The notes below the pieces were generated by a model that saw only the letters and a list, made by a program, of their open reading frames with translations, was not told the DNA's origin and ran no database searches. From a bacterium (GTDB lineage Bacteria; Actinomycetota; Acidimicrobiia; Acidimicrobiales; Bin134), in NCBI GenBank assembly GCA_026709025.1, contig JAPOTT010000008.1:4848-68847 (forward strand): a stretch of 64,000 bases of DNA. Direction: 5' to 3'. This document shows positions 426 to 59,051 of the stretch, one piece after another. Within the stretch, counting starts at the first letter, position 1. Each line of letters starts with the position of its first letter. A program made the position numbers and the translations under genes.

Positions 426-1358
426 GTGAAGTTTTCCCGTGTGATGTTTTTGCTGTTTGTGGCTGGGCTTGGCCTGTTGCTGGCAGCTTGCTCGCAATCT
501 AACTCTACACAGAGCAACGCTGCTACCCCAGCTAGCTCTCAAACAGTCACAGAATCACCGGGCCCCAGCACTCCTAGCTCCACGCCCACAGTTACACCCA
601 CAGCTCAAGCCACAGCTAAACCCACAAACATACCCACCGCAATACCCGCCGCCACGCCCACAGTTACACCTGAAGGTGGCACGTCTGAAGCTGGCACATC
701 TGAAGGTGGCACACCTGAAGCTGCTGTGCTGGTGCTGAATGAAGAGCCTCTGGGCTATGCCGATGCGCTAGCAGTAGCTCGGTTACTAGCCCCAAACATG
801 GTGTTGCCCAGCGACTGTGACAACCCCCTACCCAGACCAGATCTGCTACCAAACGCTCCGCGGCCCTACCGATCTGGCATCCACCAAGGAGTGGACTTTA
901 TGTGCCCATCCTTAGGGCACTTTGCATCAGCAGTGCTGGATGGACGTGTGGTGCAAATGGTTAACAACTACATAGACCCAACCCCTACCCACAGACAACA
1001 AATGCTGGACATTGCCAAAGAGCTAGGAACTACTCCCCCCTTCACCTTGTTGTCGTTATATGGGAACTACGTGGTGATTGATCATGGAGTGTTGCCGGTG
1101 ATTGGCCATCTGGTGTCCGTCTATGCCCACCTACATGAGGTGGATCACGATCTGAGCGTTGGGCAGTCCATCAGCGCTGGCGACAGGGTGGGTGAGATCG
1201 GCAACAAAGGAACCTCTGCGGCTGCCCGCGGCGACTATTCCGAGGGCGCGCACCTTCACTGGGAAATACACCTCAACAACCAGTATTTGGGCGCGGGCCT
1301 ATCTACCACACAAACCCGCCGGGTGTACACAGAACTCTTTTCCGAGGCAATGGGCTAA
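426..1358 (+). CDS. M23 family metallopeptidase lipoprotein
   Basis: Lipobox LLAAC, P/T/S-rich linker, HQGVD, YAHL and HLHWE M23 zinc motifs. Start moved from 135 to GTG 426 to avoid overlapping secG. Confidence 0.85.
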   Translation: MKFSRVMFLLFVAGLGLLLAACSQSNSTQSNAATPASSQTVTESPGPSTPSSTPTVTPTAQATAKPTNIPTAIPAATPTVTPEGGTSEAGTSEGGTPEAAVLVLNEEPLGYADALAVARLLAPNMVLPSDCDNPLPRPDLLPNAPRPYRSGIHQGVDFMCPSLGHFASAVLDGRVVQMVNNYIDPTPTHRQQMLDIAKELGTTPPFTLLSLYGNYVVIDHGVLPVIGHLVSVYAHLHEVDHDLSVGQSISAGDRVGEIGNKGTSAAARGDYSEGAHLHWEIHLNNQYLGAGLSTTQTRRVYTELFSEAMG

Positions 1359-1469
1359 AATGCTTGCCTAATTTCCCCGATGGCTTATTTCCCCGATGGC
1401 TTTAGCTTTGCTGTTACATATAACTACATACAGCCTTGCTGTTACATACAGCTTTGCTGTAATGCAGTC

Positions 1470-7071: not shown

Positions 7072-8943
7072 TTAGGTGGGGCGATGGAGCTTGTCGAAAA
7101 CCGCTTGGGCCACCTTATCTGGTAACCAGCTAAGCGCTTGTAGGTCTTCTAAGCAGGCCCGCTGCACCGCCCGCACTCCCCCAAGTTCTTTGACCAAGCG
7201 GGCTCGGCGTGTGGGGCCGAGGCCCACAACATCATCCAAAAACGACCTGGTCATCGCTTTGTTGCGAAGGTTGCGGTGATAGTCGTTAGCAAAGCGGTGG
7301 CTCTCATCGCGGATGCGTTGCAAAAGATACAAGCTCTCTGAAGGCCGAGGGATTTCCACCGGTGCGGCCCGCCCAGACACGTAAACCTGTTCAAACTCCT
7401 TGGCCAAGCCCGCCACGAATATCTCGCCTTGTAGCCCCAGATTGTTTACTACCCGTTCAGCCACGCCAAGCTGGCCTTTGCCCCCATCCACCACCAAAAG
7501 CTGCGGCGGGTAAGCAAACCTGCCCTTTTGATCGGGCGGCAGCTCCCGTTCTTCCAGATAGTTACGCAGGCGGCGGGTAAGCACCTCTTCCATGGCTGCG
7601 TAATCGTCGTTACCATCCACCGAACGCACCTTGAACCTGCGGTATTCGGATTTGCGCGGCAACCCGTCCTCCATCACCACCATGGAACCCACGTAATCTG
7701 TACCCTGCAGGTGGCTCATGTCGTAGCACTCAATGCGAAGCGGTGCCTGCGCCATACCTAAGCAGGCTTGCAGGTGATTCAGCGCTTGAGCCCGGGTGTT
7801 GTGATCCGAAGCGCGCTTTAAGCGGTGCCTAGCCAACGCATCGGCTGCGTTGCGGGTAACCGTTTCTTGGAGCTTGCGCTTCGCACCGCGCTGAGGCACC
7901 AAAATAGCCACCTTTGAGCCACGCTGCTGACACAACCAATCCTCATACAGCTCTTGGTTGTCGGGTAGTTGAGGCACCAGAACCTGCTTAGGGCTGCCCA
8001 GAGGATTCTCCTCAAAATACAGGCGCTCCAAAACCCGGCTCACCAACTCGGCGCTTTGCAGGTCTGCGGCCTTGTCTACCGTGAAGCCACGACGGCCCAG
8101 CACCCTGCCCTTGCGCACATAGAACACCTGACAAGCGGCCTCTAGCTCATCTTCTACCAGCCCAACCACATCGTAATCTTCTGAACGAGTGCCCACCATC
8201 TGCTGCGATTCAATGGCACGATGCACGCTAGCTAGCCGATCTCTGTAGCGAGCCGCCTGCTCAAACTCCATCGCTGCAGATGCTTGGGCCATGTCTTTTT
8301 GCAGCTGTGCAACCACCTCGGCGGTGTCGCCCCCCAAAAAGCCCAGCAACTTTTCCAACATCTGTGCATAATCGGCAGCTGAAACCTCCCCCACACACGG
8401 CCCAGCACACTTCTCTATATGAAAAAGCAGGCAAGGTCTACCGAGACGCTCATGGTGCTTGAACTTGTTATCGCTACAAGTACGAATGGGAAATGTTCGC
8501 AGCAACAAATCCAAGGTGTCCCTAATGGCATAAGCATGACCAAAGGGGCCGAAATAGCGGTTGCCTTTGCGTTTACGCCCCCGCACAACCATCGCCCGAG
8601 GCCACTCATCCACCATCGTTACACACAAAAACGGGTAGCTCTTGTCGTCACGGTAGCGAACGTTGAAACGAGGTTGGTGACGCTGAATAAGGCTGTACTC
8701 CAGCATCAACGCCTCCACCTCGTTGGCTACCTGAATCCATTCCACAGATTCTGCCTCAGCCACCATCTGAGCAGTACGCAGCGGCAAATGCGCCGGGTTT
8801 TGAAAGTAGTTGCCTAAACGTGAGCGCAGGTTCTTGGCCTTGCCCACGTAAATAACCCGCCCGTGGCGATCTTTGAACTGATAGGAGCCAGCAGCTTCGG
8901 GGATGGTGCCGCTGGGAGGACGTTGCAACATCGTGGTGGACAT
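7072..8943 (-). CDS. uvrC: Excinuclease ABC subunit C
   Basis: GIY-YIG N-terminus (YVGKAKNLRSR), CLLFHIEKCAGPC, DGGKGQ, RDESHRFA, C-terminal HhH. Start uncertain (8988/8943/8931). Confidence 0.97.
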   Translation of the reverse strand: MSTTMLQRPPSGTIPEAAGSYQFKDRHGRVIYVGKAKNLRSRLGNYFQNPAHLPLRTAQMVAEAESVEWIQVANEVEALMLEYSLIQRHQPRFNVRYRDDKSYPFLCVTMVDEWPRAMVVRGRKRKGNRYFGPFGHAYAIRDTLDLLLRTFPIRTCSDNKFKHHERLGRPCLLFHIEKCAGPCVGEVSAADYAQMLEKLLGFLGGDTAEVVAQLQKDMAQASAAMEFEQAARYRDRLASVHRAIESQQMVGTRSEDYDVVGLVEDELEAACQVFYVRKGRVLGRRGFTVDKAADLQSAELVSRVLERLYFEENPLGSPKQVLVPQLPDNQELYEDWLCQQRGSKVAILVPQRGAKRKLQETVTRNAADALARHRLKRASDHNTRAQALNHLQACLGMAQAPLRIECYDMSHLQGTDYVGSMVVMEDGLPRKSEYRRFKVRSVDGNDDYAAMEEVLTRRLRNYLEERELPPDQKGRFAYPPQLLVVDGGKGQLGVAERVVNNLGLQGEIFVAGLAKEFEQVYVSGRAAPVEIPRPSESLYLLQRIRDESHRFANDYHRNLRNKAMTRSFLDDVVGLGPTRRARLVKELGGVRAVQRACLEDLQALSWLPDKVAQAVFDKLHRPT

Positions 8944-9015
8944 CTTATTGACACCCATCCCATAGGTACGCATATCAACAGCGCGCATGTCTGTTGGTTG
9001 ACGTTCTTTGGCAGC

Positions 9016-9062
9016 ATTATTTGTGTACTTGATTATTTGTGTACTTGATTATTTGTGTACTT
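9016..9062. repeat. 16-bp tandem repeat x3 (ATTATTTGTGTACTTG)
   Basis: Directly visible in the uvrC-nadA divergent intergenic region. Confidence 0.95.
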
Positions 9063-9143
9063 CGCATGTATACCGCTTTGAACGCTGAGCAGCGTGCGGG
9101 TAAAATACCAACGCTGGCCGGGTATCCAGCGACATATCGAACA

Positions 9144-9225
9144 CCGAGGCCGACAACCCCGTGGCGAGGCGACCCGGCTGTCCCCACCGGCTGCTAATCG
9201 GAGTTCCCGTACCTCACGGAGGTTC
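9144..9225 (+). ncRNA. Putative NAD+-I (nadA motif) riboswitch aptamer plus SD-sequestering hairpin
   Basis: GGCCG-ACAACCCC-GUGG...CCAC-CGGCU matches the P1/ACAACCCC bulge/P1a architecture I recall for NAD+-I aptamers. It sits in the nadA 5' UTR and is followed by ACCUC-ACG-GAGGU overlapping the GGAGG SD. Confidence 0.7.
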
Positions 9226-9233
9226 TTACAATC

Positions 9234-10328
9234 ATGTTGCGTGTTCAGCGACCGCTTCCAGAGCGGTACACTTCGGCTTCGCCTGAGCAACTCGCGCGTT
9301 TCATCGGCGATGCCAAAACAGCCCTGGGAGACAAGCTCTTCATTTTGGGGCACCACTACCAGCGCGATGAGGTTATGACGTGGGCCGATGCTAGGGGCGA
9401 CTCGTTTCGACTATCGGTGTTAGCTCAACAGCACCCTGAAGCTGCCTACATCGTGTTCTGCGGCGTACATTTCATGGCTGAATCTGCCGATATCTTAACC
9501 GGCGATCACCAACAGGTGCTGTTACCCGACCTCAATGCTGGTTGTTCTATGGCCGACATGGCCGACATTGAACAAGTAGAAGATGCCTGGGAGGAACTAG
9601 CCCGGGTTACCGATATTGAACAAGTTGTGCCCATTACCTACATGAACTCAGCCGCCAACCTGAAGGCTTTCACCGCACGACACGGTGGCGCGGTTTGCAC
9701 TTCTTCAAATGCCCAAGCTGTGCTCAGCTGGGCACTAAGCCGAGGCCAGCAGGTGCTGTTCTTCCCAGACCAACACCTCGGGCGCAACACCGGCTTTGCT
9801 ATGGGCTATGACGAAGAACAGATGGGGGTATGGAATCCCCGCTTAGAACTAGGTGGCATAAGCGAAGCACAATGCAAAGAATCGGTGCTGTTGTTGTGGA
9901 AGGGGCATTGCTCGGTGCATCAACGCTTTCAGCCTGAGCACCTAGCGGCGTTTCGGGCTAAGCATCCCAATGGCATCGTGCTGGTACACCCCGAATGCAG
10001 CCGCGCTGTGTGTGCTGCGGCCGATCAGGTGGGCTCAACCGACTACATAATCAGTGCTGTAGATGCTGCTCCAGCGGGTTCGGTGATCGGTGTTGGCACC
10101 GAGATCCATCTTGTAAACCGTCTCAACGCAGAAACCCCCGACAAAACGGTGGTTTCGCTTGACCCGCTGGTGTGCCCTTGCTCCACGATGTTTAGAATTG
10201 ACGCTGCTCACCTAGCTTGGGTGCTAGAAGGGCTGGTGCAGGGCGAGATACACAATCGCATCACTGTGGCACCTGAGGTTGCAGCCGAAGCCAAAGTAGC
10301 GCTAGATCGAATGCTGCAAATTACCTAA
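9234..10328 (+). CDS. nadA: Quinolinate synthase
   Basis: ILGHHYQ, FCGVHFMAE, AGCSMADM, CSVH, VHPEC, CPCSTM. Confidence 0.97.
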   Translation: MLRVQRPLPERYTSASPEQLARFIGDAKTALGDKLFILGHHYQRDEVMTWADARGDSFRLSVLAQQHPEAAYIVFCGVHFMAESADILTGDHQQVLLPDLNAGCSMADMADIEQVEDAWEELARVTDIEQVVPITYMNSAANLKAFTARHGGAVCTSSNAQAVLSWALSRGQQVLFFPDQHLGRNTGFAMGYDEEQMGVWNPRLELGGISEAQCKESVLLLWKGHCSVHQRFQPEHLAAFRAKHPNGIVLVHPECSRAVCAAADQVGSTDYIISAVDAAPAGSVIGVGTEIHLVNRLNAETPDKTVVSLDPLVCPCSTMFRIDAAHLAWVLEGLVQGEIHNRITVAPEVAAEAKVALDRMLQIT

Positions 10329-56775: not shown

Positions 56776-57315
56776 TTAATTGCTGATAAGCGGATCGGGG
56801 GTTGTCTTAGACAACTTGGGTAACGCCACCTTGCCAGTGCGCTGCACATCTACGATGCCGTACGGTCTCAAAAGGTCTTCAAAGTCATCCACACGATTCA
56901 GCGAACCGGTTAAAGACACCATTATCTCGTCTTGGCCCACGTTCAACACGGTGGCTTGAAATATCCGCACCAAATCCAAGATTTGGCCCCTAATCTCAGG
57001 CTCAGCGCGCACCGTGGCCATCATCAACTCCCGCTCGATACTAGATGCAGGGTTCAACTCTTGAATCTCCACTACGTTCACCAGCTTGTCTAGCTGCTTA
57101 ACCACCTGCTCCATAGGCGCAGAGCTAACCCCCACCACGATGGTTAAGCGACTAAAGCGCTCATCGTCTGTGGGAGCTACAGCCAAAGATTCAATGTTGA
57201 ACCCCCGCCGGGCAAACAACCCGGCCACACGGGCCAACACCCCTGCTTTGTTCTCCACATGCACCACCAGCGTGGTGGTATCGGCACCCCTATGTCTGCT
57301 CACCCGACTGCTCAT
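56776..57315 (-). CDS. ilvN: Acetolactate synthase small subunit
   Basis: VENKAGVLARVAGLFARRGFNIESL, QLDKL, RTG. Confidence 0.96.
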   Translation of the reverse strand: MSSRVSRHRGADTTTLVVHVENKAGVLARVAGLFARRGFNIESLAVAPTDDERFSRLTIVVGVSSAPMEQVVKQLDKLVNVVEIQELNPASSIERELMMATVRAEPEIRGQILDLVRIFQATVLNVGQDEIMVSLTGSLNRVDDFEDLLRPYGIVDVQRTGKVALPKLSKTTPDPLISN

Positions 57316-59051
57316 CTGGGCCGATCCTGTTGGGAAGGATCTACCACAACCTCGCTGTTTGTCTTACCCGAAGGCACCATAGGAAACACGTTCTCTTCAG
57401 CCTCACATCGGAACTCCACAACAACCGGCCTGTCGTCCACCTCGTTGGCTTTATCGATGGCAGGCTGCACCTCCTCAGGCGATTCCACTCGGATGCCAAC
57501 GCAGCCCAGCGCTTCAGCCCACTTCTTGTAGTCTGGCACATCTCTATCCAGATAAACCTCTGAGTAGCGCTCCTCATAAAACATCTCTTGCCACTGGCGC
57601 ACCATGCCCAAATAGGCATTGTTCATAAGCGCCACCTTGATGGGAAAGCCCTCGGTAGTAGCTGTGACGAGTTCCTGAGCGGTCATCTGGAAGCAGCCAT
57701 CGCCATCTACGGCCCACACCATGCGATCTGGTCGACCAGCTTTGGCCCCGATAGCAGCAGGAATGGCAAAACCCATGGTGCCTAACCCACCAGAGTTCAC
57801 CCAAGTGTAAGGGTGGTTGAACTTCCAGTACTGGCTAGTCCACATCTGATGCTGACCCACACCCGATGCCACGATGGTGTCATCTGGAGTGGAATCTCGC
57901 AACTGCTCTAACACATACTGCATCTTGAGCAACTCATCGGGCTTAGATTGTTTGTATGTAAGCGGGAAACGTTCTTGCCACCCGCTAATGCGCGTGCGCC
58001 ACTGCGAGCGATCTGGCTGAGTATCTACGCCACCGTCAGCCCGCAGCACCTGTAGGAGATCTTCTATTACCAAACGACAGTCTCCTTGGATGGCCACATC
58101 TGGGCGACGCACCTTACCCAACTCGGCGCTGTCAATGTCTACGTGGATCACCTTTGCCTGTGGGGCAAAGCCGTCCACCTTGCCGGTTACCCGATCGTCA
58201 AAGCGAGCACCTAGGGCAATCAGCAAATCGGCTTCTTGCATGGCAGTAACAGCAGTGTAGTTGCCGTGCATGCCGGGCATTCCCAAACACAACGGGTGCT
58301 CATCGGGAAAGCCACCACGATTCATAAGGGTTGTAACCACAAAGATGCCTGTGAGTTCGGCTAGTTCCCGCAGTGCTTCTGCGGCACGGGCCTTCAAAAT
58401 ACCACCACCGGTGTAGAGCACCGGGCGCTCAGCCGCACATATCAGCTTGGCTGCTTGGCGTATCTGCTCTGGGTCTCCACTCAAGTTGGGGTTGTAGCCC
58501 GGCAAATCGTGGCCTTGTGGCGTGTACCAATCTAAGGCTGAACGGGGGTTGTTTGGATCTACAATGTCTTTGGGGATGTCCACTAATACGGGGCCCGGCC
58601 TTCCGGTGGTGGCTATGTGAAAGGCATCGTGAATCACCTGGGGGATGTCTGCGGCCTCCGAAACCAGGTAGTTGTGCTTGGTCACCGCCATGGTGATACC
58701 CGTGGTGTCGCACTCTTGAAATGCATCGGTGCCGATAGCGGCATAGGGCACCTGTCCTGTCACCACCACCATCGGAATGGAATCCATGTAAGCATCACAA
58801 AGAGGAGTAACGATGTTTGTGGCCGCCGGGCCCGAGGTAACCATGGCCACCCCAGGTTGTCCGGTGGCGTGAGCATAACCTTCGGCCATGTGACCTGCGC
58901 CCTGTTCATGGCGCACCAGCACATGGCGGATGGAGGAGTCCAGCAATGGGTCGTACACCGGCAATATGGCACCACCGGGTAGCCCAAACAAGATGTCTAC
59001 CCCTTCATTTTCAAGGGCCTTCATCAGGGCCTGCCCGCCGTTCATCTTCAT
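57312..59051 (-). CDS. ilvB: Acetolactate synthase large subunit
   Basis: FGLPGGA, RHEQGAGH, SGGLGTMG, GDGCFQM...NN TPP motif. Confidence 0.96.
   Translation of the reverse strand: MKMNGGQALMKALENEGVDILFGLPGGAILPVYDPLLDSSIRHVLVRHEQGAGHMAEGYAHATGQPGVAMVTSGPAATNIVTPLCDAYMDSIPMVVVTGQVPYAAIGTDAFQECDTTGITMAVTKHNYLVSEAADIPQVIHDAFHIATTGRPGPVLVDIPKDIVDPNNPRSALDWYTPQGHDLPGYNPNLSGDPEQIRQAAKLICAAERPVLYTGGGILKARAAEALRELAELTGIFVVTTLMNRGGFPDEHPLCLGMPGMHGNYTAVTAMQEADLLIALGARFDDRVTGKVDGFAPQAKVIHVDIDSAELGKVRRPDVAIQGDCRLVIEDLLQVLRADGGVDTQPDRSQWRTRISGWQERFPLTYKQSKPDELLKMQYVLEQLRDSTPDDTIVASGVGQHQMWTSQYWKFNHPYTWVNSGGLGTMGFAIPAAIGAKAGRPDRMVWAVDGDGCFQMTAQELVTATTEGFPIKVALMNNAYLGMVRQWQEMFYEERYSEVYLDRDVPDYKKWAEALGCVGIRVESPEEVQPAIDKANEVDDRPVVVEFRCEAEENVFPMVPSGKTNSEVVVDPSQQDRPR

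Follow-up and report, generated by a model that had tools for sequence, protein, structure and literature searches.

NAD+ is a ubiquitous cofactor. In the parts of the literature covered by our search, two classes of NAD+ riboswitch are described. The NAD+-I class, or nadA motif, was found in Acidobacteria by Malkowski et al. (2019), and the available text of that paper reports that a relaxed search for variants of domain 1 yielded only the ubiB motif (PMC6859854). As described there and in the structural work, NAD+-I is built of two domains in tandem, both carrying an ACANCCCC bulge, and the length of its helix P1a is fixed at 7 bp (PMC6859854, PMC7297122). According to the structural account, a conserved pair C6-G47 lies one step before the bulge (A8-C15) of domain 1, G16-C45 opens P1a, and bulge residues C13 and C14 are paired with the guanines of a GYG loop in the 3′ strand. 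Only the ADP moiety of the ligand is described as recognized: its adenosine sits against C6-G47, with A8 as stacking partner, and its diphosphate is held at the bulge neck by two metal ions (PMC7297122). ADP and ATP are reported to be bound by domain 1 as well as NAD+ (PMC6859854, PMC10702441). The class is still puzzling: the ADP half alone has been seen bound, the role of the second domain is obscure, and the full-length RNAs are reported to accept ATP and not to discriminate against it (PMC10702441).

The ubiB motif is described as a variant of nadA domain 1 in Nocardia, with nine representatives (PMC6859854, PMC7297122). The other class, NAD+-II or the pnuC motif, is described as standing before pnuC in Streptococcus, with a pseudoknot that takes in the ribosome binding site; it binds the nicotinamide side (NMN, NR).

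Here we describe the leader of a nadA gene from the Acidimicrobiales, in a stretch of 64,000 nucleotides (the window, to which all coordinates refer unless a locus is named). Upstream of the gene is uvrC (7072-8988), transcribed divergently from the minus strand; downstream of nadA is folD.

A conserved element in the nadA leader

The conserved RNA element occupies positions 9112-9205 (about 94 nt) and is followed by the SD hairpin at 9211-9223 and the nadA start at 9234 (Table 1). The aligned leaders show a long stem, P1-P2-P3-P4, which is broken by the 8-nt ACANCCCC bulge and has its apical loop docked to a 5′ hairpin, P0, by a pseudoknot. An earlier note on this DNA had assigned the element to 9144-9233, an interval that proved too short, as the element starts at 9112 and the most distinctive part of it, P0 with the pseudoknot, was missed. 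The pairings read in that note, GGCCG/CGGCU, GUGG/CCAC, CCGA/UCGG and ACCUC-ACG-GAGGU, and the unopposed 9153-9160 were all found where it had placed them. Its extension of the base by CCGA/UCGG (9144-9147 with 9198-9201) does pair, although the helix concerned, P1, is 8 bp long and not 4.

Table 1. Features of the nadA leader and their positions in the window
Feature	Position and composition	Strand	Evidence
Promoter-like site	-35 TTGAAC 9078-9083, 17-nt spacer, -10 TAAAAT 9101-9106	+	Consensus scan
P0, 5′ hairpin	9112-9117 with 9126-9131, 6 bp; loop CCGGGUAU 9118-9125	+	5/5 pairs changed on both sides, 98.2% of cells paired
Pseudoknot, six pairs	P0 loop CCGGGU 9118-9123 with P4 loop 9172-9177	+	Covariation outside the model
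Linker	9132-9139; CAUAUC at 9133-9138 conserved and left single-stranded by the model	+	C 80, A 89, U 63, A 84, U 73, C 72 of about 100
P1	9140-9147 with 9198-9205, 8 bp; 3′ strand UCGGAGUU	+	8/8 pairs changed on both sides
P2	GGCCG 9148-9152 with CGGCU 9188-9192, 5 bp	+	99.4% of cells paired; 4/5 pairs changed on both sides
8-nt bulge	ACAACCCC (consensus ACANCCCC) 9153-9160, unopposed	+	A95 C100 A100 N C92 C96 C100 C100 of 100
P3	GUGG 9161-9164 with CCAC 9184-9187, 4 bp	+	Columns 85-115: CG 53, UA 43, AU 4
5′-side bulge, P3/P4 junction	CGA 9165-9167	+	Sequence variable, 2-4 nt in alignments
P4	GGCG 9168-9171 with UGUC 9179-9182; two conserved G-U pairs	+	99.7% paired, nearly invariant
P4 loop, 7 nt	ACCCGGC 9172-9178; bases 1-6 supply the 3′ pseudoknot strand	+	
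3′-side internal loop between P2 and P1	GCUAA 9193-9197	+	Sequence and length variable
SD-sequestering hairpin	ACCUC 9211-9215, loop ACG, GAGGU 9219-9223; SD GGAGG 9219-9223	+	Local minimum-energy fold
nadA (quinolinate synthase A)	9234-10328	+	Pfam PF02445, E 3.7e-94

In the window genome P1 has a single A-A mismatch (9143/9202), and the P2 pairs are, in order, G-U, G-C, C-G, C-G and G-C. The next-to-last pair before the bulge, C9151:G9189, is C:G in 100 of 100 aligned sequences (columns 74-118), and the first pair after it, G9161:C9187, is G:C in all 100. Within the bulge, positions 5 and 6 are A now and then.

Conservation and covariation in the nadA leaders of relatives, which the earlier note had proposed to look for, were both found: the bulge is near-invariant, and the helices covary when tested against shuffles. 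The alignment of 100 sequences used for this purpose spans the class and was freed of one probably false copy (L064), one copy lacking the bulge (L066) and 16 near-duplicates chosen by eye. Because it had been fitted to the nested helices, the alignment favours these in the following figures, and the pseudoknot lies outside the model: 96.2% of cells were paired compared with 84.5% in shuffles, 27 of 32 pairs were changed on both sides, and the covariation score was 0.379 versus 0.150, a score reached by none of 500 shuffles. Sliding the partners by 1-3 columns left a score of at most 0.078. In an alignment of 81 sequences, 95.0% of cells were paired (83.1% shuffled), with 27 of 34 pairs changed on both sides.

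At the central pair of the pseudoknot (columns 9-100) the counts were UA 67, CG 15, GC 11, AU 3 and unpaired 3, so that this one position shows each of the four Watson-Crick pair types. In a model-free ranking by mutual information the model pairs came out on top, with the pseudoknot pair second. The same scan, together with RNAalifold, supplied the sixth pair of P0 (columns 1-38). RNAalifold run on the 100 sequences predicted P0, P1, P2 and P3 unaided and did not predict P4. P4, whose pairs are also nearly invariant (0 to 3 changes on both sides in each), is therefore the helix held with least certainty; one relative (L213) has CCCC/GGGG instead. Covariation backs every helix, P4 weakly, and P4 may have a tertiary role. 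The leader combines the features by which riboswitches are recognized: a covarying fold in a 5′ UTR, invariant unpaired nucleotides, a single metabolic gene and an expression platform.

A weak mutual-information signal connects 9137, a U of the linker, with 9197, the last base of the internal loop between P2 and P1 (columns 52 and 127 of alignment A6; U-A in 57 of about 85 sequences). It could be a tertiary pair or phylogenetic noise.

Taken singly, the leader is unremarkable, and the case rests on comparison. For the octamer ACANCCCC, the window contains 20 copies where 12.8 would be expected (a single one of them between 9000 and 9240), and the folding energy of the leader is no better than that of shuffles (z = +0.90). 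Both results are what a chance octamer with chance stems in a GC-rich leader would give. Conservation and covariation over more than 100 genomes, with model matches upstream of nadA, speak against this explanation, to which we assign next to no probability and which we count as refuted. Four ACANCCCC octamers were also noticed within 160 nt at 58488-58648 on the minus strand; as RNA motifs they were rejected, for they lie within an ORF of 579 aa (57312-59051, minus strand) and are coding sequence.

Distribution and association with nadA

Among the upstream regions of nadA from 30 relatives, the whole leader was kept in 28, beginning well upstream of 9144. A covariance model, R1, was made from 22 leaders and searched over whole genomes. 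Of 151 Acidimicrobiales genomes, 88, from 69 of 122 genera, each gave one full-length match; this tally takes in two unpublished genomes (G066 and G089), on which no other result rests. In the window's own genome there was one model match even at E<=10. The model was then rebuilt on 79 aligned matches (R2). In a sample of the class, 46 of 151 genomes were positive, including 34 of the 115 from other Acidimicrobiia orders. In a phylum-wide sample, four of 151 genomes were positive, and all four belong to the Acidimicrobiia; R2 matched none of the 140 genomes sampled from other Actinomycetota classes.

The closest named NadA loci are from Acidimicrobiales metagenome-assembled genomes, the nearest of which (85% identity) is labelled Candidatus Poriferisocius. 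Members of the Acidimicrobiales with a distant type of NadA had no motif. Two loci, L031 and L032 (genomes G039 and G032), encode a NadA 64-67% identical to that of the window and have neither the leader nor a model match. In these loci nadA follows an upstream ORF by a few bases and is apparently operonic, which accounts for the absence of a leader.

The motif is closely tied to a single gene. In 117 of the 118 motif copies fetched, nadA lies directly downstream, and this, with the same fold in one copy per genome, bears out the earlier note's view that this actinobacterium has a structured, conserved leader before nadA. The copies from Acidimicrobiales numbered 81 (13 of the 28 relatives' leaders, 28 of the 30 returned loci and 40 lower-scoring matches), and nadA directly follows 80 of them. 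The exception, L064, is the weakest match (33.8 bits), has neither P4 nor the pseudoknot and is probably a false copy. The class search contributed 37 copies, 31 of which belong to other orders, and all 37 have nadA directly downstream. The reverse approach gave a similar picture: among 80 loci picked by NadA similarity alone, 72 bear the motif in the right place and on the right strand, and two of the eight loci lacking it have no upstream DNA. In the 113 leaders with a recognizable start codon, nadA begins a median of 24 nt past the aptamer, and at most 35 nt past it in 97.

Several copies before nadA depart from the common layout. The copy in L066 (genome G124; 1301-1389, minus strand) has P0, P1-P4 and the pseudoknot intact and has lost the whole 8-nt bulge; it is perhaps a natural 'pocket deletion', a decayed or ligand-independent leader. 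Weak-scoring copies from another order were found in L210 (1301-1384, genome G191) and L211 (151-234, genome G195), which come from one family, and in L212. P1, P2, the ACAUCCCC bulge and P3 are present in all three, no convincing P0 or pseudoknot is seen, the apical loop differs, and the platform before nadA is about 80 nt long. As the bulged stem persists in them without the pseudoknot, it appears to be the core of the element, with the pseudoknot an accessory open to loss.

The bulge and its scaffold compared with described NAD+ riboswitches

Like domain 1 of NAD+-I, the Acidimicrobiia element has an unopposed 8-nt ACANCCCC bulge on the 5′ strand and, by the published description of that domain, the same C:G next to last before the bulge and the same G:C first after it. 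Both RNAs also sit only upstream of nadA with the SD occluded in a helix and with OFF logic expected. Judged from the aligned sequences and the structural description, the nucleotides of the NAD+-I ADP pocket are all present in the Acidimicrobiia element. This match of bulge, C:G and G:C is the main reason why a ligand bearing ADP is expected, by analogy with a solved relative; the pocket is no proof of specificity for NAD+, since NAD+-I domain 1 binds ADP and ATP too. The explanation we favour, and hold to be probable though well short of certain, is that the nadA 5′ UTR is a candidate NAD+/ADP-sensing translational OFF riboswitch. We provisionally call it unreported: full-text literature, which included few subscription papers and was searched as main text without supplements, yielded no nadA riboswitch from Actinomycetota or Acidimicrobiia and no third NAD+ class or 'NAD+-III'.

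The ligand might instead be another compound of the pathway or of energy metabolism (NaMN, NaAD, quinolinate, NADP(H), ADP-ribose or ATP/ADP). The association with nadA alone indicates a pathway and not one compound, the NAD+-I pocket is described as reading the ADP moiety only (PMC7297122), full-length NAD+-I is reported not to tell ATP apart (PMC10702441), and the pseudoknot and CAUAUC linker, which differ from NAD+-I, could read a different second half of a ligand. We nevertheless consider such a ligand unlikely, as the simplest logic, and that used by the closest known RNA, is for the end product NAD+ to govern the first committed step of de novo synthesis, and the motif is linked to no further gene that would hint at a different ligand.

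The earlier note had called the leader NAD+-I-like, and the bulge, its flanking C:G and G:C pairs and the gene agree with that description. The search with the Rfam nadA model that it had proposed did not: RF03013 had no match on the window at its gathering score (37.5 bits), none at E<=10 on 8950-9300 and none at E<=10 on 20 divergent leaders. From the E-value scale of the own genome, the leader is estimated to score below about 12 bits against the gathering score. The best RF03013 match in that genome (20 bits, E 0.057; contig C3 of G000, 73295-73379, which is L001 1501-1585, minus strand) is a chance match, since the opposite strand carries a 630-aa ORF that contains it, and the leader was not among the matches in this genome. 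Scans of the leader against Rfam 15 matched no family of any kind.

The architecture differs as well. Where NAD+-I has its 7-bp P1a, the Acidimicrobiia element has a 4-bp P3 followed by a 5′-side bulge of 2-4 nt and a helix of 4-5 bp; where NAD+-I has the (A)GYG internal loop on the 3′ strand, it has at most one unpaired base. Counting P3, an A-C or G-C layer and two P4 pairs gives 7 layers up to the invariant U9179-G9180. The model places these two bases in pairs, and they show no variation; they may or may not make a contact equivalent to that of GYG. The GYG loop holds the C-stack of the NAD+-I bulge, and its absence means that the pocket may not form alike here. In place of a tandem second domain with the ribosome binding site in its 3′ shoulder, there is a single domain and a plain SD hairpin. 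This layout had been proposed in the earlier note and is upheld by the single model match per genome and by an SD hairpin in 88 of 113 leaders. The Acidimicrobiia element further differs from NAD+-I in the 5′ hairpin, which a 6-bp pseudoknot ties to the apical loop, the conserved CAUAUC linker, a basal helix split by an internal loop, and its host, Acidimicrobiia (Actinomycetota) versus Acidobacteria.

With no RF03013 match, no 7-bp P1a, no GYG loop and no second domain, the element was not filed as a member of NAD+-I. That it works like NAD+-I is plausible; membership fails several tests. An ordinary but diverged NAD+-I RNA would share the gene, the SD-occlusion logic and, as far as the published consensus goes, a bulge with identical flanking pairs. 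It would not be expected to score so low with RF03013, to carry the P3 and 5′-side bulge in place of P1a and GYG, to lack the second bulged domain, to have a P0 and pseudoknot of which the published NAD+-I descriptions, in the text available, contain nothing (PMC6859854, PMC7297122), or to occur in a different phylum. We regard this origin as improbable.

The ubiB motif, which by its description is closer to NAD+-I than the Acidimicrobiia element is, shares with the latter an actinobacterial host and a single domain of the ACANCCCC type, followed by a plain SD hairpin and no bulged domain 2. As described, it keeps the 7-bp spacing and the NAD+-I internal loop, precedes ubiB/aarF and is not presented as having a pseudoknot. 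The Acidimicrobiia element, with neither that spacing nor that loop and with nadA as its downstream gene, is set apart from it by description. NAD+-II, going by the available text, resembles the element in being related to NAD+, pseudoknotted and translational in its control, and differs in the gene, host and pseudoknot given above. The idea that NAD+-II carries ACANCCCC too was dropped, as PMC7749635 has 0 occurrences of it.

What appears to be new here, on comparative evidence, is a known ligand-pocket module in a pseudoknotted single-domain scaffold, widespread in one bacterial class. With the nucleotides of the ADP pocket kept, the scaffold swapped for a pseudoknot and the second domain dropped, it would offer a ready-made comparison for what NAD+ recognition and switching need. 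If the riboswitch reading is right, RNA control of NAD+ synthesis would be extended to a second phylum, a regulatory element would be annotated in most Acidimicrobiia, and an RNA family missing from Rfam 15 would be added. Acidimicrobiia are abundant in soil, water and sponge microbiomes.

Stacked on each other, P0 and the pseudoknot would amount to about 11-12 pairs that lead from the apical loop back down the stem, roughly the length of P4 and P3 combined, so on geometric grounds the 3′ end of P0 and the CAUAUC linker should adjoin the bulge. A further proposal, which we put forward tentatively and think has a minority chance of being right, is that NAD+ is sensed here by an architecture of a third kind, complete in itself ('NAD+-III'), with an ancient ADP-binding bulge placed in a new scaffold. 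The docked P0 and the CAUAUC linker would then replace both the GYG clamp and the second domain and may supply recognition of the nicotinamide side, which NAD+-I is not known to show.

Proposed switching and the surroundings of the leader

The SD, GGAGG, lies 10 nt before the ATG at 9234, and the hairpin that sequesters it begins 5 nt past P1. Among the 113 leaders, the SD is paired in a local hairpin (plain, 4-6 bp) in 88, and a clear SD hairpin is missing from 25. The 5′ arm of the hairpin begins at most 6 nt past P1 in 79 of the 88 leaders that have it (median 2 nt).

According to the favoured explanation, the bulge and the invariant flanking C:G and G:C would form a pocket of the NAD+-I domain 1 type that receives the ADP half of NAD+. 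P1 and P2 would then be stabilized when NAD+, or a closely related compound bearing ADP, is abundant; the folded P1 would stack on the SD hairpin 0-6 nt beyond it and keep the SD closed, or alternatively the closed P1 would remove a single-stranded landing site for the ribosome. Translation of nadA would fall at high NAD+, as in an OFF switch. The coupling of P1 to the SD hairpin is the weakest part of this explanation.

Thermodynamic modelling of four states in 94 leaders gave no alternative helix that would free the SD. The mean SD accessibility was 0.34 for the platform alone, 0.34 with the 3′ strand of P1 added, 0.31 for the full leader and 0.35 with the aptamer enforced. The 3′ strand of P1 is SD-like (GGAG) and was considered as an anti-anti-SD; freeing it raised SD accessibility in 11 and lowered it in 12 of the 94 leaders, and the idea was rejected. 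As there was no consistent change in accessibility, no switching helix is named. Pairing of GAGG at 9146-9149 or 9167-9170 with the anti-SD CCUC, seen by eye in this genus, was likewise discarded as a common mechanism, because other families do not maintain the complementarity.

The SD hairpin appears constitutive in silico, and this, with no SD-freeing helix that could be modelled and ligand binding so far drawn from analogy, would suit a structured leader that serves protein recognition, mRNA stability or Rho termination without sensing a small molecule. Such a leader would hardly need near-invariant unpaired nucleotides gathered in a bulge identical with that of a ligand pocket of known structure. 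A compact pseudoknotted fold associated with a single gene is typical of riboswitches, and beside nadA in the window, where uvrC and folD are its neighbours, no conserved partner gene came to light. We give this possibility a low probability and retain the NAD+/ADP-sensing riboswitch as the favoured explanation.

The promoter-like site upstream of the leader is one of 4 sites found by a consensus scan of the region, where 0.4 were expected, and a hexamer resembling the -10 box was read by eye at the matching place in relatives of the genus. From this site, transcription would be predicted to begin near 9112-9114, where P0 opens. A terminator scan flagged 9112-9131 on the minus strand (the complement of P0, followed by a T-run); this was set aside as an artefact, since the T-run is the nadA -10 box read on the opposite strand, at a place where no gene terminates.

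Between uvrC and the nadA promoter-like site, positions 9016-9062 form a perfect tandem repeat of the 16-nt unit ATTATTTGTGTACTTG (2.9 copies), which overlaps promoter-like hexamers on both strands and is missing upstream of nadA in the 23 genus relatives compared. The repeat could be a recent expansion or an array of binding sites.
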